11,690 nucleotides of DNA from positions 1 through 11,690 of the forward strand of contig JBDRLL010000023.1 of assembly GCA_043813075.1 (NCBI GenBank). The letters run 5' to 3'. The notes beneath the pieces were generated by a model that saw only the letters and a list, made by a program, of their open reading frames with translations, was not told the origin of the DNA and made no database searches. Shown here in pieces: positions 869-11,690 of this stretch. How positions within the stretch are numbered: position 1 is the stretch's first letter; every line of letters starts with the position of its first letter. Origin of the DNA: Candidatus Altiarchaeota archaeon. GTDB lineage: Archaea > Altiarchaeota > Altiarchaeia > IMC4 > SCGC-AAA252-I15. The position numbers and the translations under genes are program-made.

Positions 869-1558
869 ATGAATGGTATTAACATGGACGGCGGCTTCAT
901 CAACGGTAATTGGATTATAGCATGCCTGATGCTGCTTGCCATGGTGAACTCCGTTTCCGCGGATATCATAGGGTATGTGACGATAGAGAATTACGCGTCA
1001 TGCAATGACGCTGACCCTGACATGGACGACGACTGGTACGACTGCAACATGGACCCGGCTAACTCCGACTGCAATCCTGTCGGAAGCCAGCACCAGGAGT
1101 TCACGTGCGGGTACAGCACGGCCAGCGCATTGGATGCGTGCAAGTGCATATACGGTTCTGAAGTGGAGGTGTCTGTGAACACGTATGTAATCTCTCCGAG
1201 AAACTGTCCCATATGGACGTGCGAGACAAACAGCGCAGACCAGTGCAACCAGAACCCCAAGATAGTCAGCGTCAACCTGGAGTATACTGGGACGCCGGTC
1301 TCCGGGAAGATAAGCCTGAACCCGAACGACTGGGACAGCAGCTACTGGCACTGCTTCTGGTGGGACGACCAGTTCCTGAAAAGCCAGCAGGCTGCGCCAA
1401 CAAACCCGTTTGAAATCAGCATAACAGATGCGGGCACACTTGCCCCAGGCAGCCATGAGCTTAAGATGTCGCTGGAGGATATGGAATGCGACGGAACGTC
1501 GTATCCAAGTAAGGAATGGCATGCGACAGAAGTTGAGATACAGGTTTTGTACGTTTAG
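869..1558 (+). CDS. Secreted Cys-rich, acidic hypothetical protein with Sec signal peptide
   Basis: ORF 863/869/884..1558, start uncertain. Hydrophobic segment WIIACLMLLAMVNSVSA has a probable V-S-A cleavage site. The mature part has 11 Cys, an Asp-rich stretch (CNDADPDMDDDWYDC) and a beta-rich C-terminal half. Confidence 0.75.
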   Translation: MNGINMDGGFINGNWIIACLMLLAMVNSVSADIIGYVTIENYASCNDADPDMDDDWYDCNMDPANSDCNPVGSQHQEFTCGYSTASALDACKCIYGSEVEVSVNTYVISPRNCPIWTCETNSADQCNQNPKIVSVNLEYTGTPVSGKISLNPNDWDSSYWHCFWWDDQFLKSQQAAPTNPFEISITDAGTLAPGSHELKMSLEDMECDGTSYPSKEWHATEVEIQVLYV

Positions 1559-1559
1559 A

Positions 1560-2141
1560 ATGGACTTGGACGACTTGATTGAAAACAAGGTGCTGATAGC
1601 TCTGGCGGGCCTAGTGCTGGTGGCGGTCATCGCTTGGAGCACTGGCTACTTAAATCCTGTGGAGACGACATCGACCACGATAACCACTACGACGCAAACG
1701 ACCATCCCGGAAAACAGGGTGGAGGATGCTTCAGAACTCCTGAAGGTGATGGGTAATATCCTCAGGGAGAATCCAGAGAGGGTGATAGATATGGGAGACA
1801 GCTACGTGCTCATACTGCCATCGCGCGATGCCGTGGAGTTCTCGAAGGACGGGAAAGAGACTGCGATACTGTTGAACAGGGCTGCGAGGGCAGGCCAGGA
1901 GCTTGAGTTCACAGCTTCAGACATGTCGTATTGCAGTGAAGACGCTGGAGGGGGGGATTTGTGCGTGAAGGACGAGGACGATGTTGAGCTGGAGATTCTC
2001 GGTTTATTCCCACAGGGATACGCCAGAAGGAGTTCAAGAATCGACGCCTATAGCACGCTAGACGCTGAGATGATTGATGCCATGAACACTACGGAATACG
2101 TGAGGAGAACTGCCGTAGGCGGGATGCTGGACGTGGGTTAA
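1560..2141 (+). CDS. Membrane-anchored hypothetical protein with N-terminal TM helix and Thr-rich linker (193 aa)
   Basis: ATG at 1560, 1 nt after the upstream TAG. Sequence MDLDDLIENK-VLIALAGLVLVAVIAW (TM) then ETTSTTITTTTQTT. The ORF-track start at 1428 overlaps the previous gene and is rejected. Confidence 0.75.
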   Translation: MDLDDLIENKVLIALAGLVLVAVIAWSTGYLNPVETTSTTITTTTQTTIPENRVEDASELLKVMGNILRENPERVIDMGDSYVLILPSRDAVEFSKDGKETAILLNRAARAGQELEFTASDMSYCSEDAGGGDLCVKDEDDVELEILGLFPQGYARRSSRIDAYSTLDAEMIDAMNTTEYVRRTAVGGMLDVG

Positions 2142-2174
2142 AGCATTTTTTCCTTTAAGACGATAACTTAACAC

Positions 2175-2585
2175 ATGAAAGCGCAGATTACGGTAGACTT
2201 CATGATAGCGATAGGAGTGGCCTTGACGCTTTTCATACTGATCCTTCAAACAATAAACAGCCAGGACTCCCAGCGGCGGGATATCGTCCACCGGGTGGAG
2301 GCGAAGAATCTGGCTGAAGAACTGGCGTCTGCGATAAACTCGGTGTATCTTTCTGGGGAGGGTTCCAACAGGACAATTGTCCTCCCCCACACAATGCAGG
2401 GGGGTGTGGGCTATGAAGTAAGGGTCTACCCGAAGTCGGTGCTTGTGAGGTACGACGACAATGTGAGGATGCAGTCCACGGGAACGCTTACTGCAGACAT
2501 CGGGCCCGGCGAATATGTGCTGGTGGACCCTGGGAGGATTATGATATCGTATTCTGGAGGTGTATTGAAGGTTGAGAATGAATGA
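2175..2585 (+). CDS. Minor pilin-like protein with class III signal peptide
   Basis: MKA|QITVDFMIAIGVALTLFILILQ: basic residue, A at -1, Q at +1, acidic D at +5, then a hydrophobic helix. The AEELASAINSVYLSGEG...IVLP segment is typical of archaeal pilin-like proteins. Confidence 0.8.
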   Translation: MKAQITVDFMIAIGVALTLFILILQTINSQDSQRRDIVHRVEAKNLAEELASAINSVYLSGEGSNRTIVLPHTMQGGVGYEVRVYPKSVLVRYDDNVRMQSTGTLTADIGPGEYVLVDPGRIMISYSGGVLKVENE

Positions 2586-3099
2586 TAAAGGGCAGATGTC
2601 CACGATAGACTTGACTGTTGCCTTCGTGATAATGCTGTTCATAATATTCGCGTCCCTTGAGGTGTGGACTACTGGCGTGAGGAAGATGGACACTGTATAC
2701 AACAAGCGGGGCATAGACCGTAAGGTACTGGACGTCGCGGAGTCGCTGGTGGAGACTCCAGGCGTGCCTTCAGGATGGCATACCCTGGATGTCGTTGACT
2801 CCAGCACTGTGGGTTCGGTAGGGTTCGCTAGGAAGAGGAATGTCTTGGACGGTCCGAGGCTGGATAAGGCATCTTCCATGGACTATGGGGAGTTGAGGAG
2901 GATCATGGGCTTGAGCAAGGAGGAGATTCACGTGGTAGTCAGGAACCTGAGTGACCCGGGTAGACGAGTTGTCTACGAGTACGGTCAGGGTACGGACGGC
3001 ACGGCAGTCGTCGTTAACAGGTATGGCATGCTGGGGGGCGACATGGTCGAAGTGAGTGTGAGGCTATACTATCCGGAGGGGTCCCAGCTGTCGGTGTAG
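2578..3099 (+). CDS. Minor pilin-like protein with class III signal peptide
   Basis: ATG at 2578 overlaps the upstream gene end. MNDKG|QMSTIDLTVAFVIMLFIIF, followed by AESLVETPGVPSGW...VGFA and MDYGELRRIMGL motifs seen in archaeal minor pilins. Confidence 0.8.
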   Translation: MNDKGQMSTIDLTVAFVIMLFIIFASLEVWTTGVRKMDTVYNKRGIDRKVLDVAESLVETPGVPSGWHTLDVVDSSTVGSVGFARKRNVLDGPRLDKASSMDYGELRRIMGLSKEEIHVVVRNLSDPGRRVVYEYGQGTDGTAVVVNRYGMLGGDMVEVSVRLYYPEGSQLSV

Positions 3100-3109
3100 G
3101 TGGTATGAT

Positions 3110-3490
3110 ATGACGGGCATATTCACTCTGGACGCGGTGGTGGGACTGTCCATATCGATGATGGTGCTAAGCGCCAGCATACTGATGCTCTCAGAGCCTA
3201 AATCCAGCAACAGGGAGAACGTCTACCAGATTTCCACGGACGTGCTCACGATACTCGACGAGAACGGCGGGCTTCAACGTCTGGCAAACCATGATGGGAG
3301 CATGCTAGGTGAGATAAAATCCGCTTTGCCGCAGAAGTACTGCATTGAATTAAGAATCAGGGACACCAACGACAATATCGTATTCCAGGAGGATGAGGAC
3401 TGCATTGGAAGCGAGTACGTGATCTCAAGGAGGAATTTCATGATGGAGCGAGAGCCGTATACGGCTGAAATAAGGATGTGGTACAAGTGA
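3110..3490 (+). CDS. Minor pilin-like protein with short class III-like signal
   Basis: RBS-like AGGTGGT at 3098-3104. MTG|IFTLDAVVGLSISMMVLSASILML has a G|xFTLDA motif, followed by STDVLTILDENG and two Cys. Confidence 0.75.
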   Translation: MTGIFTLDAVVGLSISMMVLSASILMLSEPKSSNRENVYQISTDVLTILDENGGLQRLANHDGSMLGEIKSALPQKYCIELRIRDTNDNIVFQEDEDCIGSEYVISRRNFMMEREPYTAEIRMWYK

Positions 3491-4308
3491 GGGACAGGGG
3501 ACTTTTATTCTCGATAATGAGCTTGATGCTGGTGCTGAGCGTGTTCACGCTGGCAGCCTACTATTCCACCATACACGTGGGGGAGGAAATACAGTCCGAG
3601 AAGATGAACAACATATTCAGTGACGTGCAGACGGACATCGAGCAGGTCCTTGCCATGAACGCGGAGGTGGTTCATGATGGGGGGAGGACTATGGTGAGGA
3701 TGAATGATAGGATGCCGCTGGAGGATGGCGTAAGCACACTAAACGCCTATGAGGACCATCTTGAAGGCTACTATGCGGGGAAGATAAACTCTGACATAAG
3801 GTTCTTTAGGGGGAGCGAGCCGGAGATGAGCATAGAGCCCGTCGGGATGGTGTACGGGTACAACACATACAACAAGCAGGAGTTGAGGGTATACAATGAG
3901 ACAGGCGAGGCGAGGGTATACGCTTATGAACTCTACTTCAGGGTAGACGGCAACTTCGTGAACGCGCAGGATGAGACACTATCCGGAAGCAGGAGGGTGA
4001 AGATAAACGGGACATTCGCGAACACAGGGTATGAGGAGATGTTCACAGTCTCGCCCACAGAAAGCTCGACCGTAACCCTGAACTTCACGACAGGTAAGGT
4101 CAGGATACACTTGGGTAGAAACACCATAAAAGGCGTTGAGAGGGATAATTCAATTAGGATAACCATGCTTGGCGACATAGGCGGCGAAATAGGCGCGAAC
4201 ATCGTGTTCGATGACATGGCGGACGTCGGCGTCAAGACGAATATGAGCCTGGAGGTCAGCGGGCCAATAACCAGAAGGGACAATGTATGGCTCACCCCCC
4301 CTGTATGA
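3487..4308 (+). CDS. Larger minor pilin or adhesin-like protein with class III signal peptide
   Basis: GTG at 3487 overlaps the upstream stop (GTGA); alternative GTG at 3478. (M)RDRG|LLFSIMSLMLVLSVFTLAAYY, beta-rich C-terminal domain, four N-glycosylation sequons (NET, NGT, NFT, NMS). Confidence 0.75.
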   Translation: MRDRGLLFSIMSLMLVLSVFTLAAYYSTIHVGEEIQSEKMNNIFSDVQTDIEQVLAMNAEVVHDGGRTMVRMNDRMPLEDGVSTLNAYEDHLEGYYAGKINSDIRFFRGSEPEMSIEPVGMVYGYNTYNKQELRVYNETGEARVYAYELYFRVDGNFVNAQDETLSGSRRVKINGTFANTGYEEMFTVSPTESSTVTLNFTTGKVRIHLGRNTIKGVERDNSIRITMLGDIGGEIGANIVFDDMADVGVKTNMSLEVSGPITRRDNVWLTPPV

Positions 4309-4340
4309 GCAGGACATGTCAGGTAGGTGTTTTCGTACCG

Positions 4341-4347
4341 TATAAAA
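4341..4347 (+). promoter_or_regulatory. Putative archaeal TATA box for the parA-adaptor-ATPase-platform unit
   Basis: TATAAAA lies 28-34 nt upstream of the ATG at 4375, in the 66-nt intergenic gap. Confidence 0.55.
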
Positions 4348-4350
4348 GGA

Positions 4351-4369
4351 GTTATTAGTAAGTAATAAC
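4351..4369. promoter_or_regulatory. Inverted repeat GTTATTA-N5-TAATAAC, candidate operator
   Basis: Perfect 7-bp arms (4351-4357 and 4363-4369) between the TATA box and the start codon. Confidence 0.45.
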
Positions 4370-4374
4370 AGTCT

Positions 4375-5349
4375 ATGGAGTTGAATGGCCGCATAATCCT
4401 GAGGGAGCTGCCCGACAAGGGAGAGGTTAGGATAGACACATTAGCTGAAGTCCTCGGTTTTGATAGGAAGAGTGTGCTGGAATCCTGTATGGCCCTTAGC
4501 AAGGACGGGTATGTTGAGGTGAGGAAACCATTATTCAGGAAATACCGTATATCTCGGACAGAAAAGAGGATGGGACGGCCAGGTAAATGCAGGGTTATAA
4601 GCGTTTCAAACCATAAGGGCGGGGTCGGGAAGACCACTACCGCCATAAACGTCTCAGCATCGCTCGCAGAGCTTGGGAAGAAGGTCCTTTTGGTGGACTT
4701 GGACCCGCAGGCGAATGCGACGACAACAATTGGGAGGGGTAAGAACATCAGATACAACATATACGACGTCCTATCCCTGACTGTGCCCGCTGCGGAGGGT
4801 GTGGTGGAGACTGACTACGGCTTCAGCCTGCTGCCATCGGAAGTCGGACTAGTGGGGCTTGAAGTCGAGTTGAGCGGAATCAGGAACAGGGAGCATCGTC
4901 TTGATGACGTGATAACAGACCTCAGGAGCGCGTACGACTACATCATAATAGACTGCCCGCCGTCACTCAGCATACTCGCTGTGAACGCGCTCACAGCATC
5001 GGACTCTGTCTTGATACCAGTGCAGTCAGACCAGTACGCCATAGAAAGCATTAGCACCCTCACCAGGATAATAGAGCTTGTTAAAGACAGGCTCAACGAA
5101 TCCCTCGAGATAGAGGGCGCGCTGATAACAATGCACGAGCCGGAATCCGAGTTCTCAAGGAGGATAGCGGAAGAGGTGAGGAGGAGGATGAAGGAGACTG
5201 TCCTGGATGTGGTTATCGAGAGGGATCCTAAGGTGAGCGAGGCTGCTGGCAGCAACATGCCTTTAATCAAATACGACCAGGAATCAAAGGCTGCGAAAGC
5301 ATACATGGAATTGAGCAGGAAACTGATTTCAGATGAAAGAGAAGGATAA
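4375..5349 (+). CDS. parA: ParA/Soj-family ATPase with N-terminal winged-helix extension
   Basis: Deviant Walker A KGGVGKTT (from 4615), VLLVDLDPQANAT, Walker B YDYIIIDCPPSL and NALTASDSVLIPVQ give strong Soj similarity. The N-terminal ~62 aa (IILRELPDKGEVRIDTLAEVLGFDRKSVLESCMALSKDGYVEV) are wHTH-like. No C-terminal MinD amphipathic helix. Confidence 0.92.
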   Translation: MELNGRIILRELPDKGEVRIDTLAEVLGFDRKSVLESCMALSKDGYVEVRKPLFRKYRISRTEKRMGRPGKCRVISVSNHKGGVGKTTTAINVSASLAELGKKVLLVDLDPQANATTTIGRGKNIRYNIYDVLSLTVPAAEGVVETDYGFSLLPSEVGLVGLEVELSGIRNREHRLDDVITDLRSAYDYIIIDCPPSLSILAVNALTASDSVLIPVQSDQYAIESISTLTRIIELVKDRLNESLEIEGALITMHEPESEFSRRIAEEVRRRMKETVLDVVIERDPKVSEAAGSNMPLIKYDQESKAAKAYMELSRKLISDEREG

Positions 5350-5545
5350 CGAGTCTAGGGGGCTTGACTCCCTGATACCAAGGGAGAGCAAGGGCGAGAA
5401 GCTGGGTAGGGGCGAAATACAGAAGGTGCTTTCCATCCTGGACGAGCTGCTGGGCAGGCTTCCTGACGAAGAGGTTGAAGAATTCGCGAAGTCCAAGGAA
5501 TACGAGCTATACGTGAAGCTCCTTGAATCATATAACGTAAGGTAA
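5333..5545 (+). CDS. Small 70-aa helical protein with a ParB-like N-terminal RGLDSLI peptide; putative ParA partner or adaptor
   Basis: Overlaps parA by 17 nt and ends 1 nt before the ATPase start. Contains SRGLDSLIP and KLGRG, then amphipathic helices VLSILDELLGRLPDEEVEEFAKSKEYELYVKLL. Confidence 0.75.
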   Translation: MKEKDNESRGLDSLIPRESKGEKLGRGEIQKVLSILDELLGRLPDEEVEEFAKSKEYELYVKLLESYNVR

Positions 5546-5546
5546 A

Positions 5547-7913
5547 ATGGGCTTAAGGGAGAAGGCAGAGTTGATAAGAGAGCGAGGCGTTCTCACTGAA
5601 GCCCTTGGCAGACACGTAAGAGCATATGGCGCCGTCGTGGCGGTAAAAGCATCCAAAAAGCTGAAGGCCGGCCGGAGGGACTTCAAGAGGTCTTTGGAGA
5701 AGCTCGAGGGGGACGGTAGGATAAAGATAGTAAAAAGATTTCTTAGGCCTCCAGCAATCAAGGCGACTGACAAGCTGCTTCTGGAAATGCCTCCCGGCGT
5801 GGGTAAGAACAACCTGCTTGACTTGATGGAGTCTGAGGGGAGACTGACGACACGTGATGCTGCTGAAAGGCTGGGTTTAAGCTATGAGGTAGTTAGAGAG
5901 TGGGCTTCCATACTCCAGAGGGACAATCTGGTGGTGCTGGACAAGGGGGTGATAAAGGCTGTTATGCCCAGGATATTCAGGCATAGACTGGATGGAGAAC
6001 TCGCGGAGAGCAGTAGGGGCAGTAGGACGATATACACTCAGGTGGACTACCTGTATGACTCGCTGAAAAGGGCTGGTAGGATGAGTGTGCCTGACGCGGC
6101 ATTGCTTTGCGAGACGACGCCGGAAAGGATAGAGAAATGGGCTAAACACCTGGACGTGTTCACGATAGAATACCCGTCAAACTTAATGAAGGAGGCTCAA
6201 GTGAAGCTCTCAAAAAAGCAGGTGAATCAGGAGGGGGAGGAGGAACTTGAAGGCCAGGTTTTAGACAGCTACAAGCTGACTGCCGACAAGGTGGTTGCTG
6301 AAGTGAGGATAATATCGAGCAAGAAGAAGTCCAAGCCCATATACATGGTGAAGGTTCCGAAGATATGCGCTGCAACACATAGCATGATGGACTTCATGAG
6401 GGATATATTGAGCAGCAGGGTGAAGATAGAGGTGGGGGACATCTCAGACTCCAGGAAGATGATGGAACTCAAGGAGAAGTTCTTCGATGAAGCCAGGAGG
6501 ATACTGATGAGCGAACTGGATTTGGACACTGACGACGCTAACGTTCTCGCGGGGACCATGACGCACTACATGTACGGGCTGGGAGACATAGAGCTACTGA
6601 TGCACGACGACTGGCTTGAGGAGGTTTGCGTGAACACCAGCCACATACCATTGACCGCTTACCACAAGAGGTTCGGATGGGTTGAGACAAGCCTGACCAT
6701 AAAGGACGAGCGGAGCGTCTACAACTACGCAGCGCAGATCGGGAGGAAGGTGGAGAGGGACATAACGAACATGGAGCCCATAATGGACGCCCACCTGCTG
6801 TCAGGCGACAGGGTGAACGCAACACTATTCCCGATATCCAACTTCGGTAACACGATAACCATAAGGAAGTTCGCGAGGCAGCCGTGGACTATAGCCCACT
6901 TCGTGAGCCCTGAAACACAGTCGCTTTCATACGAGATGGCTGCATTCCTCTGGCTCGCCTTCCAGTACGAACTCAACGTGCTTGTGGGAGGGGGGACTGC
7001 ATCAGGGAAGACGAGCATGCTGAACTGCCTGTGCTCGCTGATACAGCCCACACACAGGGTCATAACCATAGAGGACACCAGGGAGCTGAACCTGCCAAAG
7101 TACTTGAAGTGGAACTGGGTTCCGCTGAACACGAGGGAAGCCAACCCTGAGGGTAAGGGTGAGGTGAGCATGCTAGACCTCATAGTCACATCCCTGCGTA
7201 TGAGGCCGGACAGGATAGTCTTGGGCGAGATAAGGCGCAGGCGGGAGGCTGAAGTCCTCTTTGAAGCCATGCACACCGGCCACTCGGTCTACGGCACCAT
7301 ACACGCGGACACCGTCCACAACCTGAAGAGGAGGCTTCTTGAGCCGCCCATAGAGCTGCCTGCCGCGGAAGTCGAGGCACTGCACCTGATGATAGTCGTC
7401 TACAGGGACCGTCGGAAGGGCAGTAGGAAGGTGTTTGAGATAGCGGAGATACGGCCTGGAACCGGGAGCAGCGAATTCGAACTCAATTACCTGTACAGGT
7501 ATGACACCAGGTCCGGGGAATTCCTCACCATGCACGATAGCGTCAGGATATTCGACGAGCTTAGCCTGCACACGGGGATGACGAGGCCTGACATAGAGAG
7601 GGACCTGGGCGAGAAGGAGGCTGTGCTCCAGTGGATGGTGAAGGAGAACAAGAAGAGCCTCGATGATGTCGGGGAGGTGATGGACCTTTACTACAAGGAC
7701 AAGGAAGGCCTCCTGAAGATGGTGAGGGACAGTGGGGTGGAAGTCCCTAAAGGGAAGGGGGGTGAGGGTGATGTTGGTGACGATGCTGCGGTGAAGAAAC
7801 AGGGTGGTGAGGAGAAGGCTGCGGTGAAAAAGGAGGGCGTTGATAGGAAGCGGCCGCCCAAGAAGGATGAATCCGACGACTTCAAGCCTCCTGACATGAG
7901 CCAGCTAGGATAG
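5547..7913 (+). CDS. Type IV pilus / type II-IV secretion ATPase (VirB11/TadA/CpaF/FlaI family) with N-terminal winged-helix repeats
   Basis: YGLGDIELLMHDDWLEEVCVN, ITIRKF, Walker A GGTASGKT (~6990-7013), Asp box TIEDTREL, Walker B RMRPDRIVLGEIR and His box MHTGH...TIHAD. Has a ~230-aa N-terminal extension and a charged, low-complexity C-terminal tail. Confidence 0.95.
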   Translation: MGLREKAELIRERGVLTEALGRHVRAYGAVVAVKASKKLKAGRRDFKRSLEKLEGDGRIKIVKRFLRPPAIKATDKLLLEMPPGVGKNNLLDLMESEGRLTTRDAAERLGLSYEVVREWASILQRDNLVVLDKGVIKAVMPRIFRHRLDGELAESSRGSRTIYTQVDYLYDSLKRAGRMSVPDAALLCETTPERIEKWAKHLDVFTIEYPSNLMKEAQVKLSKKQVNQEGEEELEGQVLDSYKLTADKVVAEVRIISSKKKSKPIYMVKVPKICAATHSMMDFMRDILSSRVKIEVGDISDSRKMMELKEKFFDEARRILMSELDLDTDDANVLAGTMTHYMYGLGDIELLMHDDWLEEVCVNTSHIPLTAYHKRFGWVETSLTIKDERSVYNYAAQIGRKVERDITNMEPIMDAHLLSGDRVNATLFPISNFGNTITIRKFARQPWTIAHFVSPETQSLSYEMAAFLWLAFQYELNVLVGGGTASGKTSMLNCLCSLIQPTHRVITIEDTRELNLPKYLKWNWVPLNTREANPEGKGEVSMLDLIVTSLRMRPDRIVLGEIRRRREAEVLFEAMHTGHSVYGTIHADTVHNLKRRLLEPPIELPAAEVEALHLMIVVYRDRRKGSRKVFEIAEIRPGTGSSEFELNYLYRYDTRSGEFLTMHDSVRIFDELSLHTGMTRPDIERDLGEKEAVLQWMVKENKKSLDDVGEVMDLYYKDKEGLLKMVRDSGVEVPKGKGGEGDVGDDAAVKKQGGEEKAAVKKEGVDRKRPPKKDESDDFKPPDMSQLG
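7776..7838 (+). repeat. Imperfect ~30-33 nt tandem duplication in the ATPase C-terminal tail (GDDAAVKKQG / GEEKAAVKKEG)
   Basis: The core GCTGCGGTGAA-R-AA occurs at 7785 and 7818, preceded by GGTGA at 7776 and 7806. Confidence 0.65.
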
Positions 7914-7918
7914 CTAAG

Positions 7919-8803
7919 ATGGAAGTACCGTTGATGATAATACCCCTTAAGATAGGGGTGAGGCTTGCAGGCAAAGAGAAGGCCATATGGAGCAGGGCCT
8001 TCAAATTCTACCCGAAACTCAAGCTGTATCTGATGGAAACGGACTTGGAGGTGGAGGCTGAGGAGTACATCGGCGCGTCATTCATATCAGCCCTAGCGAC
8101 AGGGCTTCTGTTCGCAAGCCTCGTATACCTGCTTCTGACTGTGCTTGGAGCGGAGCAGGATAAGGTCCTGTTCCTCACGGGGAGTGTGGGTCTGGTAATA
8201 TTCCTGCTCTTCCTCTTCGTCCTGATAACATACCCAAACATACTCGCAGGGAAGAAGGCCGAGCAGATAGAGAGAGACCTGGTGTTCGCGCTGAAAGACA
8301 TGCTACTGGAAGTCAGCTCAGGGGCCTCACCCTACGCCGCACTGACTGAAGTAGCGAACTCGGACTACGGGAGCATCTCCAGGGAGATAGGGAAGGTTGT
8401 GAACAAGGCTAATGTCGGCATTCCGGTCGAGGAGGCGCTGGAAGACCTGGCTGTTAGAACCAGGTCTGAGATGCTGAAGAACAGCATATGGCAGATAGTC
8501 AACGCCCTAAAGTCCGGGTCCAGCCTGGAGGGCATACTGCGGGAGCTGGTGAGAGACCTCACAGTAGAGCAGAAGATGAAGATAAGGAACTACGCGCAGG
8601 AACTAAACGTCATGGTGTTGATATACATGCTCTTCGCCGTGGTCATACCCACCATAGCGACCACCCTCATAATAGTCTTAGGGCCGTTCCTTGGGATAGA
8701 CATGGGCCCGAAGGTCTTCTACATAATCCTTCCCGTATGCTTTTTCATACAGATATCGCTCATGGAGTTCATAAAAAGCAGAAGGCCGGTGGTGTACGTG
8801 TGA
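7919..8803 (+). CDS. Type IV pilus membrane platform protein (TadB/TadC/FlaJ-like, T2SS-F domain)
   Basis: Two N-terminal TMs, then YP...KAEQIERDLVFALKDMLLEVSSGAS...YGSISREIGKVV...GIPVEEALEDLA...QIVNALKSGSSL, then C-terminal TMs. Lies directly after the ATPase. Confidence 0.92.
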   Translation: MEVPLMIIPLKIGVRLAGKEKAIWSRAFKFYPKLKLYLMETDLEVEAEEYIGASFISALATGLLFASLVYLLLTVLGAEQDKVLFLTGSVGLVIFLLFLFVLITYPNILAGKKAEQIERDLVFALKDMLLEVSSGASPYAALTEVANSDYGSISREIGKVVNKANVGIPVEEALEDLAVRTRSEMLKNSIWQIVNALKSGSSLEGILRELVRDLTVEQKMKIRNYAQELNVMVLIYMLFAVVIPTIATTLIIVLGPFLGIDMGPKVFYIILPVCFFIQISLMEFIKSRRPVVYV

Positions 8804-9768
8804 TGATTCGGAGATTCTACATACTATTGTCCAAAGTGTTCCCGAAGAAGACTGTGGAGGGCATGCAGGACATGATAAGGTGTGCTGGACTGGATGTCGA
8901 GGCGAGGGTGTGGCTCGGCAACTCACTGCTCATGGGGACGCTAGTGCTGGCTGCAACAGTGTACATAGGGAGATACGGGGACCAGATGATGTTCAACATA
9001 CTCGGAGTGTGCATGTTCATAGTGTATATGGTGGCGGCATACAACATACCATTCTTCATAGCCGAGAAGAGGGCTGAGGCTGTTGAGGAAGCGCTGCCGA
9101 GCGCGCTACAGCTGATGTCATCCAACGTGCGGGCTGGGATGACCCCATACCAGGCCATGAAGGTGTCTGCGAGAGACGAGTTCGGTGTTCTGAGCGAGGA
9201 ACTGGAGAAGGCGACCACAAAGGCTCTGGGAACTTACTCGTTCTCAGACGCCCTGATGGAGATAAAGGAGAACATCTCCCTACCGGTACTTGAACGCTCG
9301 ATAAAACTGTTCATCAGGAGCATAGAGTCGGGAGGGCACCTGGCAAAGATGCTGGAGGAGACTGCTAGGGACATGAATGAGAACATAATGCTCAGGAGAC
9401 AGCTCGTATCCAGCACAAAGACGTACACCATACTCATACTATTGACTATAATAGTGGGCATGCCGGTCCTGATGAACGTTTCCATACACTTCACGGAGAG
9501 GATGGAGCAGATGAAATCCAACTTTAACCCATCAAACCTAGATGAGGTAGGCCTCGGGGTTCTCATGTCGGAGGCGTTCAGCATAGACTTCCTCATGAAC
9601 ATCTCGACGGTTATCATAGTCTTCACGTCCATAATCGCGAGCCTGCTCATAGGAGTCATAATCAAGGGTGAGGAGAAATACGGGCTGAAATACGCTTTCT
9701 TTATAGTGCCCGCGACCCTGATGGTTTTTTACGGCATAAGGCAGATGGTGAAGCTGTTTTTCACATAG
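8803..9768 (+). CDS. Second type IV pilus membrane platform protein (TadC-like, T2SS-F domain), 321 aa
   Basis: ATG at 8803 overlaps the upstream stop (TGATG). Contains AEKRAEAVEEALPSALQLMSSNVRAGMTPYQAM...EFGVLSEEL...SIESGGHLAKML and several TMs. The ORF-track start at 8488 is spurious. Confidence 0.92.
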   Translation: MIRRFYILLSKVFPKKTVEGMQDMIRCAGLDVEARVWLGNSLLMGTLVLAATVYIGRYGDQMMFNILGVCMFIVYMVAAYNIPFFIAEKRAEAVEEALPSALQLMSSNVRAGMTPYQAMKVSARDEFGVLSEELEKATTKALGTYSFSDALMEIKENISLPVLERSIKLFIRSIESGGHLAKMLEETARDMNENIMLRRQLVSSTKTYTILILLTIIVGMPVLMNVSIHFTERMEQMKSNFNPSNLDEVGLGVLMSEAFSIDFLMNISTVIIVFTSIIASLLIGVIIKGEEKYGLKYAFFIVPATLMVFYGIRQMVKLFFT

Positions 9769-9815: not shown

Positions 9816-10271
9816 ATGAATAATAAGGGACAATTATCAACGGAGTACCTGGTCATATTGGCCGTCGTCGTGATAGTCGCGCTTATAGTTGTGACAGTGC
9901 TTGGCGGGTTCATAGACATAGGTACTGGTGCGGGAGCCCAGGCAGCAAAAGGATACTGGAGGTCGGCAGACATAGGGATACTGAACTGGAAGGTGTCCTC
10001 GACGGCAGGCGGATCTGAGTTCATGGTCAGGAACAACCTGGACTACAGGATAGAGATATCGGACGTCAGTGTGGACGGTGCGTCAGTGCACTCCACTGCG
10101 ACAGTGCTAACCGCAGGACAGAGCAAGAAGTTCACTCTGACAGGAACGCTGTGCAGTGCTGCTGGAGACCAGTACGCTATGCCGGTCAAGTTCACGTACA
10201 AGGACGTTGACAACGACATATCAGGACTGACGTTCACTGGTACGAAGAACATTGAAGGCAACTGCGAGTAG
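9816..10271 (+). CDS. Archaeal type IV pilin (class III signal peptide, DUF361/PF04021-type), probable major pilin
   Basis: MNNKG|QLSTEYLVILAVVVIVALIVVTVLGGF has the canonical KG|QxSxE motif with Glu at +5. Beta-rich head domain with two Cys; strong SD. Confidence 0.9.
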   Translation: MNNKGQLSTEYLVILAVVVIVALIVVTVLGGFIDIGTGAGAQAAKGYWRSADIGILNWKVSSTAGGSEFMVRNNLDYRIEISDVSVDGASVHSTATVLTAGQSKKFTLTGTLCSAAGDQYAMPVKFTYKDVDNDISGLTFTGTKNIEGNCE

Positions 10272-10357: not shown

Positions 10358-10819
10358 ATGAAGCATAGGGGACAGTTATCCACAGAATACCTGGTCATAC
10401 TGGCAGTCGTGGTCGTGATAGCGCTTATAGTCGTCACAGTGCTGGGCGGATTCATAGACATCGGCAGCGGCGCAGGCAGCAAGGCCTCGAAGGCATACTG
10501 GAGGGGGGCGGACATTGGGATACTTAACTGGAGGATGTCTTCGACAGGGGATTCAAGATTCACGCTAAGGAACAACATGGACTACTCTATAAAAATGGAT
10601 TCTATGACTGTGGAAGGCAACCAGGTTTCGGGGGCAGTAGACAAGATCATAGAGCCGGGCGCAACCATTAACGTTAACGGAGACATGACCGCATTATGCG
10701 TTAAGGCAGGGGATACATATTCTGTGGGGATTGTCTTCCAGTTTGACGACAAAGACCATAGCATAGATGATCTGACATTCAAGGGGCTTAAGAAACTTGA
10801 GGGAAGCTGCGAAGAATAG
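10358..10819 (+). CDS. Archaeal type IV pilin (class III signal peptide), paralogue of 9816-10271
   Basis: MKHRG|QLSTEYLVILAVVVVIALIVVTVLGGFIDIG. Shares YWRxADIGILNW, RNNxDY, LCxxAGDxY and LTFxGxKxxEGxCE with the upstream pilin. Confidence 0.9.
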   Translation: MKHRGQLSTEYLVILAVVVVIALIVVTVLGGFIDIGSGAGSKASKAYWRGADIGILNWRMSSTGDSRFTLRNNMDYSIKMDSMTVEGNQVSGAVDKIIEPGATINVNGDMTALCVKAGDTYSVGIVFQFDDKDHSIDDLTFKGLKKLEGSCEE

Positions 10820-11139: not shown

Positions 11140-11690
11140 ATGAATCATGGGATAACACTCCTGACGGCAACAATAATGATTATGGCAGCCATTATGGGAG
11201 TTGCCCAGAACTACGAGCACGTGCCGGTATGGACCGGCAACCTTGGAGGTAGGATAGGGTCGATAAAAAAACAGAATGACACTATCATAGTGGCGTCCGG
11301 CGACAGGATAGCCTGCTTGAACCAGAACGGAAGGCTCAAGTGGGAGCACGCTACGGGAAACATCGTGAACTCTATAATGTTCTACGGGGATAGGATAATC
11401 GCCTCGTCCACAGACCACACCACATACATGTTCTCGAGAGAAGGTAGATTATTATGGAAGGCGGAGACCCCGGGATACGTCGGATACGACAATGCCTTAG
11501 ACGCTAGGGACGGTAGGATACTCGCAGGTTCTGTCAACGGGAACGCCTACATGTACGATGACAGTGGAAACCTGCTTTGGGAATATTACGTCGGAGGATA
11601 TGTCATGGCGGTAAGGATACTGGAGGACAGCACGGTCGTTGTATCCGACAGGCAGGCACTCATACTTGACCTTGAGGGGGAGGTTAGGAC
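11140..11690 (+). CDS. Secreted PQQ-like/BamB-type beta-propeller repeat protein, 3'-truncated and absent from the ORF track
   Basis: Translated by hand: signal-like MNHGITLLTATIMIMAAIMGVA, then repeats of ~40 aa ending CLNQNGRLKWEH, MFSREGRLLWKA, MYDDSGNLLWEY and ILDLEGEVR. The frame is open to the window end. Confidence 0.85.
   Translation, partial: MNHGITLLTATIMIMAAIMGVAQNYEHVPVWTGNLGGRIGSIKKQNDTIIVASGDRIACLNQNGRLKWEHATGNIVNSIMFYGDRIIASSTDHTTYMFSREGRLLWKAETPGYVGYDNALDARDGRILAGSVNGNAYMYDDSGNLLWEYYVGGYVMAVRILEDSTVVVSDRQALILDLEGEVR

Follow-up and report, generated by a model that had tools for sequence, protein, structure and literature searches.

A Soj-type ParA and a small protein with a ParB-like motif encoded with the assembly ATPase of an archaeal type IV pilus

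How archaea set the site and the number of their surface filaments is largely unknown. The locus described here raises this question in a specific form: what is a ParA ATPase of the DNA-segregation type doing among the genes of an archaeal type IV pilus? The window, that is, the whole stretch of DNA that we analysed (11,690 nucleotides (nt) from a Candidatus Altiarchaeota archaeon), is an entire 11.7-kb contig, and its source bin is a 1.8-Mb archaeal genome, 89% complete. Three of its genes, lying on the + strand between minor pilins upstream and two platform genes downstream, encode a ParA, a 70-amino acid (aa) protein and the pilus assembly ATPase. The first two overlap by 17 nt (5333-5349) and a single base (5546) separates the second from the third; these coordinates confirmed the coupling and the placement described in an earlier, sequence-only reading of this DNA. 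The locus would make a compact three-protein circuit, in which the ParA appears to be wired to the pilus ATPase by the 70-residue protein acting as an adaptor. We judge the chances evenly balanced that the trio is an accessory module dedicated to one type IV pilus machine, with ParA, adaptor and ATPase together placing, partitioning or gating that machine. Gene order, co-occurrence, protein folds and the conservation of motif and pocket are the observed basis of this reading, from which we infer the protein-protein contacts, the matrix and the cellular outcome.

By its sequence and predicted structure, the ParA is catalytically intact and Soj-like rather than MinD-, FlhG-, McdA- or SegA-like, in agreement with the sequence-only reading. 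The deviant Walker A motif (K81-GGVGK-T87), D108/D110 and the Walker B residue D193 are invariant in the alignments of its relatives (A5/A6). When the core (residues 72-319) was compared with proteins in the PDB, it matched Myxococcus xanthus ParA (8RAY, 212.6 bits), Thermus thermophilus Soj (160.8 bits) and Helicobacter pylori Soj (152.5 bits) at 34-45% identity and template modelling (TM) scores of 0.9-0.95, followed by MinD (86.4 bits), SegA (69), McdA (53.5) and FlhG (46.8). A Foldseek search with the AlphaFold2 model gave the same ranking (8ray_B, E 1.6e-29, TMt 0.95). The protein scored well over the Pfam cut-offs for both AAA_31 and CbiA and below the curated NCBIfam cut-offs for ParA_partition (NF041546, 108.3 bits vs 180) and minD_arch (TIGR01969, 118.4 vs 201.75); against the minD_bact and CpaE-like (TIGR03815) models it reached 75.7 bits (cut-off 212.9) and 32 bits (cut-off 154.45), respectively. 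No amphipathic membrane-targeting motif was seen at its C-terminus by eye, without formal scoring. At the N-terminus there is a winged helix and no receiver-like domain: residues 1-72 gave weak winged helix-turn-helix (wHTH) matches in Pfam (TrmB, 9.7e-4), and the AlphaFold2 model (predicted local distance difference test (pLDDT) 87.8) placed a winged helix at residues ~5-61. This ParA is the sole Soj-like match in its genome at E ≤ 1e-5 with a ParA query. The same genome carries two more CbiA-family P-loop genes, at G000:C8:26448-27200 (55.8 bits) and 28545-28661 (23.4 bits).

The hydrophobic pocket that receives the ParB peptide in M. xanthus ParA (V116, L150, L152, L155, L187 and L192; PMC12462528; citations here and below refer to excerpts of the papers named) is kept in the window's ParA as V164, L198, I200, V203, L235 and L240. 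Four of the six residues are identical and two are conservative hydrophobic replacements in the alignment to 8RAY, for which the chain-to-residue offset of +19 was derived from the position of D60A. Near the N-terminus of the 70-aa protein, R9, L11, L14 and I15 have the same spacing as R13, L15, L18 and I19 of ParB (PMC12462528). The window's protein has Glu at the equivalent of ParB L11, and thus carries the Arg and three of the four hydrophobic positions; Leu occupies that position in an orthologue (L003, genome G011) and in two metagenomic small proteins (P0008 and P0026), which by residue count show all four. The motif consensus beyond the residues named above we take to be four hydrophobic residues around a central Arg or Lys. 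Like P0017, P0023 and P0062, the two metagenomic small proteins are known as proteins alone, without gene context.

Neither a ParB_N CTPase domain nor a helix-turn-helix DNA-binding domain was found in the 70-aa protein with Pfam and NCBIfam; in fact no family was assigned to it in either scan (the PF27359 model, discussed below, was presumably not in the Pfam copy scanned). ParB_N (PF02195) was also absent from all seven genomes that carry the trio, and was present in 2 of 21 genomes of the family, with positive controls. By sequence, the protein is no ParB and at most mimics a ParB motif. To see the remainder of the protein in a wider context, a profile built from six members of its family was searched against 1.84 billion representative proteins, yielding 2545 proteins at E ≤ 1e-3 and 285 at E ≤ 1e-10. 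The matched proteins are 48-760 aa long, and in nearly all of them the match covers only the last ~45 residues of the profile and sits at the very end of the protein. The ESM Atlas gave a lead to Pfam TP_0179 (PF27359), with feature scores of 0.84-0.85, 181-194 shared features and structural TM scores of 0.70 and 0.62, and the profile also matched zinc-ribbon (DZR) proteins of Thermoplasmata, a kind listed under PF27359 in the Atlas. The C-terminal domain is probably TP_0179, which we treat as a lead. The sequence-only reading had seen a ParB-derived peptide lacking a ParB body. A ParB-like N-terminal motif and the missing body both held up, and the picture of a simple cut-down ParB did not, the C-terminal two thirds being a widespread archaeal domain.

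The ATPase has a FlaI/TadA-like core (residues ~270-730; FlaI-like model NF058587, 6.3e-73, under that model's cut-off), preceded by a helix that starts Met-Gly-Leu (residues 1-27) and followed by a charged tail. In the AlphaFold2 model of residues 1-240 (pLDDT 84.7), a long helix (3-27) leads into three winged helices (~28-79, 87-138 and 165-221), for which Foldseek returned tandem-winged-helix scaffolds (TFIIIC tauB, UFL1/DDRGK1, ESCRT-II, RPC62 and SelB). The resemblance of such modules to the ParA N-terminus, noticed before any search was made, proved to be homology between the ParA wHTH and the second ATPase module (hhalign Prob 97.4, E 1.1e-11); only profile-profile comparison detects it, and a BLASTP comparison of the wHTH with the ATPase N-terminus, both taken from the window, gave no match. 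For the third module, the likeness is to the winged helix at the C-terminus of DUF2226-like proteins. From these two relationships together, it seems that in the window's lineage a separate Met-Gly-Leu/winged-helix protein was fused to the ATPase and a copy of the winged helix to the ParA. A phmmer search with the 26-residue N-terminus against PDB sequences returned 0 matches at E ≤ 10. Complex prediction of ATPase residues 1-240 with the 70-aa protein reached a best score of 0.26 vs a mark of 0.32, without controls, and we use it neither for nor against binding. The end of the ATPase (7700-7913) is a Lys/Glu/Gly-rich tail, and the same-genus orthologue (L084) is a 1086-aa protein with a far longer one. 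Genomes of the family (f1) also encode several pilus-ATPase paralogues with one or two N-terminal winged-helix modules and no Met-Gly-Leu start.

The order wHTH-ParA, small gene, Met-Gly-Leu-start ATPase recurs in six other genomes of the family (G001, G002, G011, G016, G018 and G020) and on four metagenome contigs (L113, L114, L116 and L118), two of the four with identical proteins, so that the synteny of the three genes extends to related genomes. A related-loci search run with alignment A2 gave 10 loci from 54 candidate stretches in genomes and 12 from 70 in metagenomes. The ParA gene lies directly upstream of the small gene in all 11 loci with a motif-bearing small protein. Within the family, all 7 orthologous ATPase loci had ParA and the small protein, and none of the 23 loci of pilus-ATPase paralogues did (scripted check of 30 fetched loci with ±1.5 kb flanks, plus a check by eye); pilus-ATPase matches number 1-8 per family genome and four in the window's own. 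These counts are not independent of one another because the genomes are kin. The TP_0179-like domain itself was found in 22 of 61 species genomes of the phylum, and the small motif-bearing form in the window's family only. Upstream, the last two pilin-like open reading frames (ORFs; 3110-3490 and 3478-4308) are syntenic with the trio in relatives, and pilin-like homologues stand directly upstream of ParA in five of the loci (L051, L056, L113, L116 and L118).

In a sister family, the ParA most similar to the window's, at ~40% identity, is encoded in the locus L127 (G035:C4:31000-44000). There the ParA gene (5499-6350) follows the gene (1026-5411) for a membrane protein of 1461 aa with an ATPase end resembling HerA/FtsK, and precedes one for an 820-aa coiled-coil protein (6353-8815) that has a ParB-like motif at its N-terminus. 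By its sequence, the coiled-coil protein seems to be a second partner, other than ParB, of a Soj-type ParA in the phylum.

What could the C-terminal domain bind? Wherever it occurs, the gene that follows it starts within a few bases, and the product of that gene almost always begins with Met-Gly-Leu and then a basic stretch (in the listed N-termini of two samples). In the first set of 42 distinct domain proteins, 36 had a downstream ORF; the M-G/S-L/F start was found in 30 of these by pattern and in four more by eye, and of the remaining two, one was followed by another domain protein and one had no such neighbour. A second, phylum-level sample, in which 76 of 401 genomes had the domain, contributed 19 new proteins, 17 with a downstream ORF; 13 of these ORFs had an M-G/S-L start and two were MinD/ParA-like genes. 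In 41 of 42 first-set proteins, and in 19 of 23 from the second sample, just 0-3 residues follow the domain before the C-terminus. Among the downstream Met-Gly-Leu proteins are pilus ATPases, KaiC-like ATPases (with PF06745 E-values down to 2.6e-53), DUF2226-like proteins of ~320 aa whose genes stand before that of a pilus ATPase, and giant DUF835/coiled-coil proteins of Thermoplasmata. The domain-bearing proteins are equally varied, with coiled coils, double zinc ribbons and, in one case, an AAA+ ATPase of the DnaA type. In 13 proteins with an internal or repeated domain, drawn from 150 listed profile matches, the domain was never joined to a Met-Gly-Leu protein in a Rosetta-stone fusion.

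Individual loci illustrate this range. In four loci of a second phylum (L142, L143, L145 and L146), a KaiC-like ATPase (PF06745) with an M-G/S-L-L start comes after the domain protein; ATPases of this kind are known to neighbour archaeal pilus loci (PMC4858521). Seven loci labelled Thermoplasmata (L052, L053, L057, L058, L060, L120 and L121) have zinc-ribbon or coiled-coil domain proteins followed by giant Met-Gly-Leu proteins, which span 1149-1739 aa where complete within the locus; one has a DUF835 domain (6.9e-29), and no pilus genes were seen in these seven loci. In L042 (G026:C1, 271-1746), one protein combines a DnaA ATPase domain of bacterial type (PF00308, 1.3e-68) with two TP_0179-like domains, and a Met-Gly-Leu-start DUF2226 protein (PF09987, 3.5e-6) follows at 1746-3002.

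On the reading of the trio as a module, the steps would be as follows. The ParA would act as an active Soj-type ATPase that forms an ATP-dependent dimer and is anchored to a matrix (most likely the nucleoid) by its basic surface, the extra N-terminal winged helix or both. The ParB-type motif of the 70-aa protein would dock in the hydrophobic pocket of the ParA dimer and stimulate ATP hydrolysis, while the TP_0179-like domain would grip the pilus ATPase, most likely through the Met-Gly-Leu helix and the first winged-helix module. A hexameric ATPase could then display up to six motifs, and only assembled motors would make strong, multivalent ParA cargo; juxtaposed motifs strongly favour ParA activation in M. 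xanthus (PMC12462528). The outcome would be ParA-dependent placing, spacing or partitioning of pilus motors, for example at division, or alternatively a gate in which the ATPase is held away from the platform until release. That a partition-type ParA has been repurposed to place, count or gate pilus assembly is something we, like the sequence-only reading, still infer.

Several observations weigh against this reading. The ParB-like motif covers only ~9 residues, is short of one hydrophobic position in the window, and is more degenerate in G002, G016, G018 and G020. The residue for non-specific DNA binding in M. xanthus ParA, R238 (PMC12462528), corresponds to Lys286 in the window, and is Lys in two of five aligned relatives (L084 and L003) and Thr or Ala in three, so that nucleoid binding through the canonical ParA surface is uncertain. 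The trio is present in only 7 of 21 family genomes, in L113 the small gene and the ATPase gene are 373 nt apart, and all trio loci may belong to one lineage, which would leave the independent evolutionary support thin. The domain, finally, also stands directly upstream of MinD/ParA-like genes (L148 and L150) and is joined to the DnaA-like ATPase of L042; given these contexts, it could bind P-loop ATPases generally, ParA included, rather than the Met-Gly-Leu helix.

A broader proposal, possible but with chances well short of even, is that the domain and the Met-Gly-Leu helix of the next gene's product form a widespread archaeal docking code, and that in the window's lineage the usual scaffold was swapped for a bare ParB-type motif, making a new class of ParA cargo adaptor. 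Such a code would couple oligomeric ATPases (pilus and KaiC-like ATPases, DUF835 proteins) to interchangeable scaffolds, namely coiled coils, zinc ribbons or a DnaA-like ATPase. If true, a secretion ATPase would here be plugged into a Soj-type ParA gradient, as the first archaeal case of ParA-driven positioning of a pilus motor. The pairing is seen across several archaeal groups on KaiC-like and pilus ATPases, and it could explain how 'orphan' ATPase extensions and accessory proteins recognise each other in archaeal filament systems.

The contexts of L148, L150 and L042 also bear on a different arrangement, which we consider rather unlikely: that the 70-aa protein regulates ParA only, in a MinE-like manner and with no tether to the ATPase. 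The domain would then dimerise or bind ParA or another P-loop ATPase, the Met-Gly-Leu start would be an independent signal, such as a membrane- or ParA-interacting helix, and ParA would itself touch the ATPase, with the homologous winged helices as a possible interface. In L148 and L150 the domain is an internal copy in membrane or secreted proteins, and a MinD/ParA-like gene lies directly downstream, which is an independent link between the TP_0179-like domain and the MinD/ParA ATPase family. The DnaA-like fusion of L042, the homology between the ParA wHTH and the second winged helix of the ATPase, and two domain proteins that begin with a similar basic N-terminal motif (P0033 and P0090) point the same way. 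However, the order of domain C-terminus then Met-Gly-Leu is tight and close to universal across unrelated partners and is most simply explained by a cognate pair, and most domain proteins have no ParA nearby.

The region upstream of parA raises another alternative. A TATA-like box precedes the ParA start codon, as the sequence-only reading had pointed out, and from the usual archaeal spacing between TATA box and start we regard it as a possible promoter, giving a near-leaderless transcript. Between this box and the ATG lies a perfect inverted repeat with 7-nt arms and a 5-nt spacer, weak evidence for a candidate operator of a winged-helix protein. Type Ia ParA proteins such as P1 ParA and F SopA repress their own operons through an N-terminal winged helix, and the wHTH-ParA might likewise serve mainly to autoregulate transcription of the pilus operon, aided by the 70-aa protein as co-regulator. 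Its winged helix is modelled with confidence, and the Foldseek alignments of the full ParA to P1 ParA (3ez2) and V. cholerae ParA2 (7npe) take in its N-terminus and span 369 columns. However, the repeat is not conserved in seven related upstream regions: L086 has a different 7-6-7 repeat, L084 has a 7-nt palindrome, and L085, L088, L003, L113 and L116 have no inverted repeat near the ParA start. The SopA model scored 45.8 bits vs a cut-off of 725, and the tandem winged helices of the ATPase, homologous to that of ParA, match protein- or RNA-binding scaffolds. Autoregulation would also leave the conserved ParB-type motif and the cargo-linked domain unexplained. As the main function of the ParA we consider it unlikely; it is compatible with the module reading and is no exclusive alternative to it.

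By family scan, the genes around the trio complete an archaeal type IV pilus set, with a T2SSE ATPase, two T2SSF/TadC platform proteins and pilins with class III signals. This make-up of pilins, minor pilins and two platform genes is typical of an adhesive pilus, and it speaks against the idea, which we hold to be quite improbable, that the machine handles DNA in uptake or transfer, with a VirC1-like ParA that delivers the nucleoid or a DNA substrate to the ATPase, and with DNA bound by the four winged helices (one on ParA and three on the ATPase). ParA-like ATPases do position conjugation machinery (review PMC11407121), and the ATPase resembles the VirB11/TrbB type (TIGR02788, 7.8e-34; TIGR03819, 2.2e-49; both below cut-off). 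Still, the ParA matched VirC1 at just 30-32 bits (cut-offs 24 in Pfam and 313 in NCBIfam), and no relaxase, nuclease or DNA translocase was seen in the 11.7-kb window by family scans. The last alternative, an ordinary partition cassette of the chromosome or a mobile element merely sitting inside the pilus locus, would suit a ParA core closest to chromosomal Soj/ParA, its status as the only ParA at the above threshold and the ParB-type motif of its partner, but it is hardly credible: the position in the pilus operon is conserved in all loci found, the cassette is absent from 14 of 21 family genomes, there are no centromere-like repeats in 3900-5700, and the partner has no DNA-binding domain recognised by Pfam or NCBIfam and a C-terminal domain tied elsewhere to ATPase genes, not to DNA elements. 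Of the four rivals, this hitchhiking cassette fares worst against the conserved operon position, the lack of ParB and of centromere repeats, and the links of the domain to ATPase genes.

Compared with known ParABS systems (those of M. xanthus, T. thermophilus and H. pylori), the trio shares the ParA core, the deviant Walker A motif, the kept peptide pocket and a partner with a basic residue flanked by hydrophobics at the same spacing near its N-terminus. It differs in having no ParB body and no parS-like repeats. Its partner protein is 70 aa long and includes a TP_0179-like domain, its ParA carries an additional winged helix at the N-terminus, and its genes sit in a pilus operon. Type Ia plasmid ParA proteins (P1, F SopA, V. 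cholerae ParA2) also have a winged helix fused to the ParA core; they are distant in sequence, whereas the window's core is chromosomal-Soj-like and its winged helix is homologous to a module of the pilus ATPase. In McdA/McdB, ParC/ParP, PomXYZ and Haloferax MinD4 systems, the N-terminal region of the partner binds and activates the ParA/MinD ATPase and another part binds cargo (PMC11407121). The logic of ParA/MinD and adaptor would be the same here, with a pilus assembly ATPase as the cargo and with different parts in the adaptor domain and the Met-Gly-Leu tag. If the contacts are real, the ParB-type motif would be a transferable handle, which evolution can add to cargo other than DNA.

Among filament systems, ParA/MinD-family ATPases have been noted in archaeal type IV pilus loci, including FleN/MinD-like ATPases of arCOG00589 and arCOG05608 (PMC4858521, Makarova 2016; PMC13705601, PLoS Genet 2026), and TadZ/CpaE and VirC1 are bacterial precedents for a ParA/MinD-superfamily ATPase at such machines (PMC11407121). 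Like TadZ/CpaE and the two arCOGs, which are thought to place or regulate the machine, the window's ParA is encoded with pilus genes; unlike them, it is Soj-type, has a winged helix instead of a receiver-like domain and comes with a ParB-mimic adaptor. To date, Haloferax MinD4 is the only one that experiments have linked to the archaellum (work cited in PMC13705601 and PMC11407121). The locus resembles archaeal 'system 1'/Epd-like filaments in its ATPase, two separate platform genes, pilins with class III signals and minor pilins (PMC13705601), and differs in the ~270-residue N-terminal extension of the ATPase, with its helix and three winged helices. Extended ATPase N-termini were attributed to system 2 and proposed to be interfaces for accessory proteins (PMC13705601). 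The excerpts of PMC4858521 and PMC13705601 make no mention of a ParA/adaptor pair or a ParB-motif adaptor. Likewise, no ParB-motif adaptor, Soj-type wHTH-ParA in a pilus operon or domain-to-Met-Gly-Leu pairing was found in the titles and abstracts searched; supplementary tables may list the genes as arCOGs. The sequence-only reading had not recognised the architecture as described. With respect to the ParB-motif adaptor that assessment stands, and with respect to ParA/MinD ATPases in archaeal pilus loci it does not: MinD-like ATPases in such loci are known, and the ParB-mimic adaptor and the domain-to-Met-Gly-Leu pairing are apparently new, having not been found in the literature searched.

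Table 1. Features of the window and the evidence for each (positions in nt from the first base of the window).
Feature	Position	Strand	Evidence or remark
Four pilin-like/minor-pilin ORFs	2175-2585, 2572-3099, 3110-3490, 3478-4308	+	N-terminal hydrophobic segments
TATA-like box, TATAAAA (putative promoter)	4341-4347	+	~27 nt before ParA ATG at 4375 (sequence read)
Perfect inverted repeat, 7-nt arms and 5-nt spacer	4351-4369	+	Between TATA-like box and ParA ATG
wHTH-fused Soj-type ParA, 324 aa	4375-5349	+	Pfam AAA_31, 2.4e-59
Candidate bipartite adaptor, 70 aa	5333-5545	+	Alignments A1, A2 and A4; profile search
ParB-type ParA-binding motif, residues ~7-16	5351-5380	+	Motif residues from PMC12462528 (excerpt)
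C-terminal TP_0179-like domain, residues ~28-70 (~45 aa)	5414-5542	+	Profile search, ESM Atlas
Type IV pilus assembly ATPase, 788 aa	5547-7913	+	T2SSE (PF00437), 8.1e-30
Platform protein 1, TadC/T2SSF-like	7919-8803	+	PF00482, 8.5e-17
Platform protein 2, TadC/T2SSF-like	8803-9768	+	PF00482, 1.6e-19
Two pilins with class III signal peptides	9816-10271, 10358-10819	+	PF04021, 2.4e-5 and 2.8e-4

The four upstream pilin-like ORFs had no Pfam family in the Pfam scan. No prepilin peptidase was seen in the 11.7-kb window, the rest of the genome not having been searched for one. At the two ends of the window lie genes for secreted or membrane-anchored proteins: a ThuA-like/Thr-rich secreted protein fragment and a Cys-rich secreted protein (2-2141), and a membrane-anchored PQQ-like beta-propeller (11140-11688; PF13360, 2.3e-9). 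The products of both regions may be adhesins or surface partners of the pilus.

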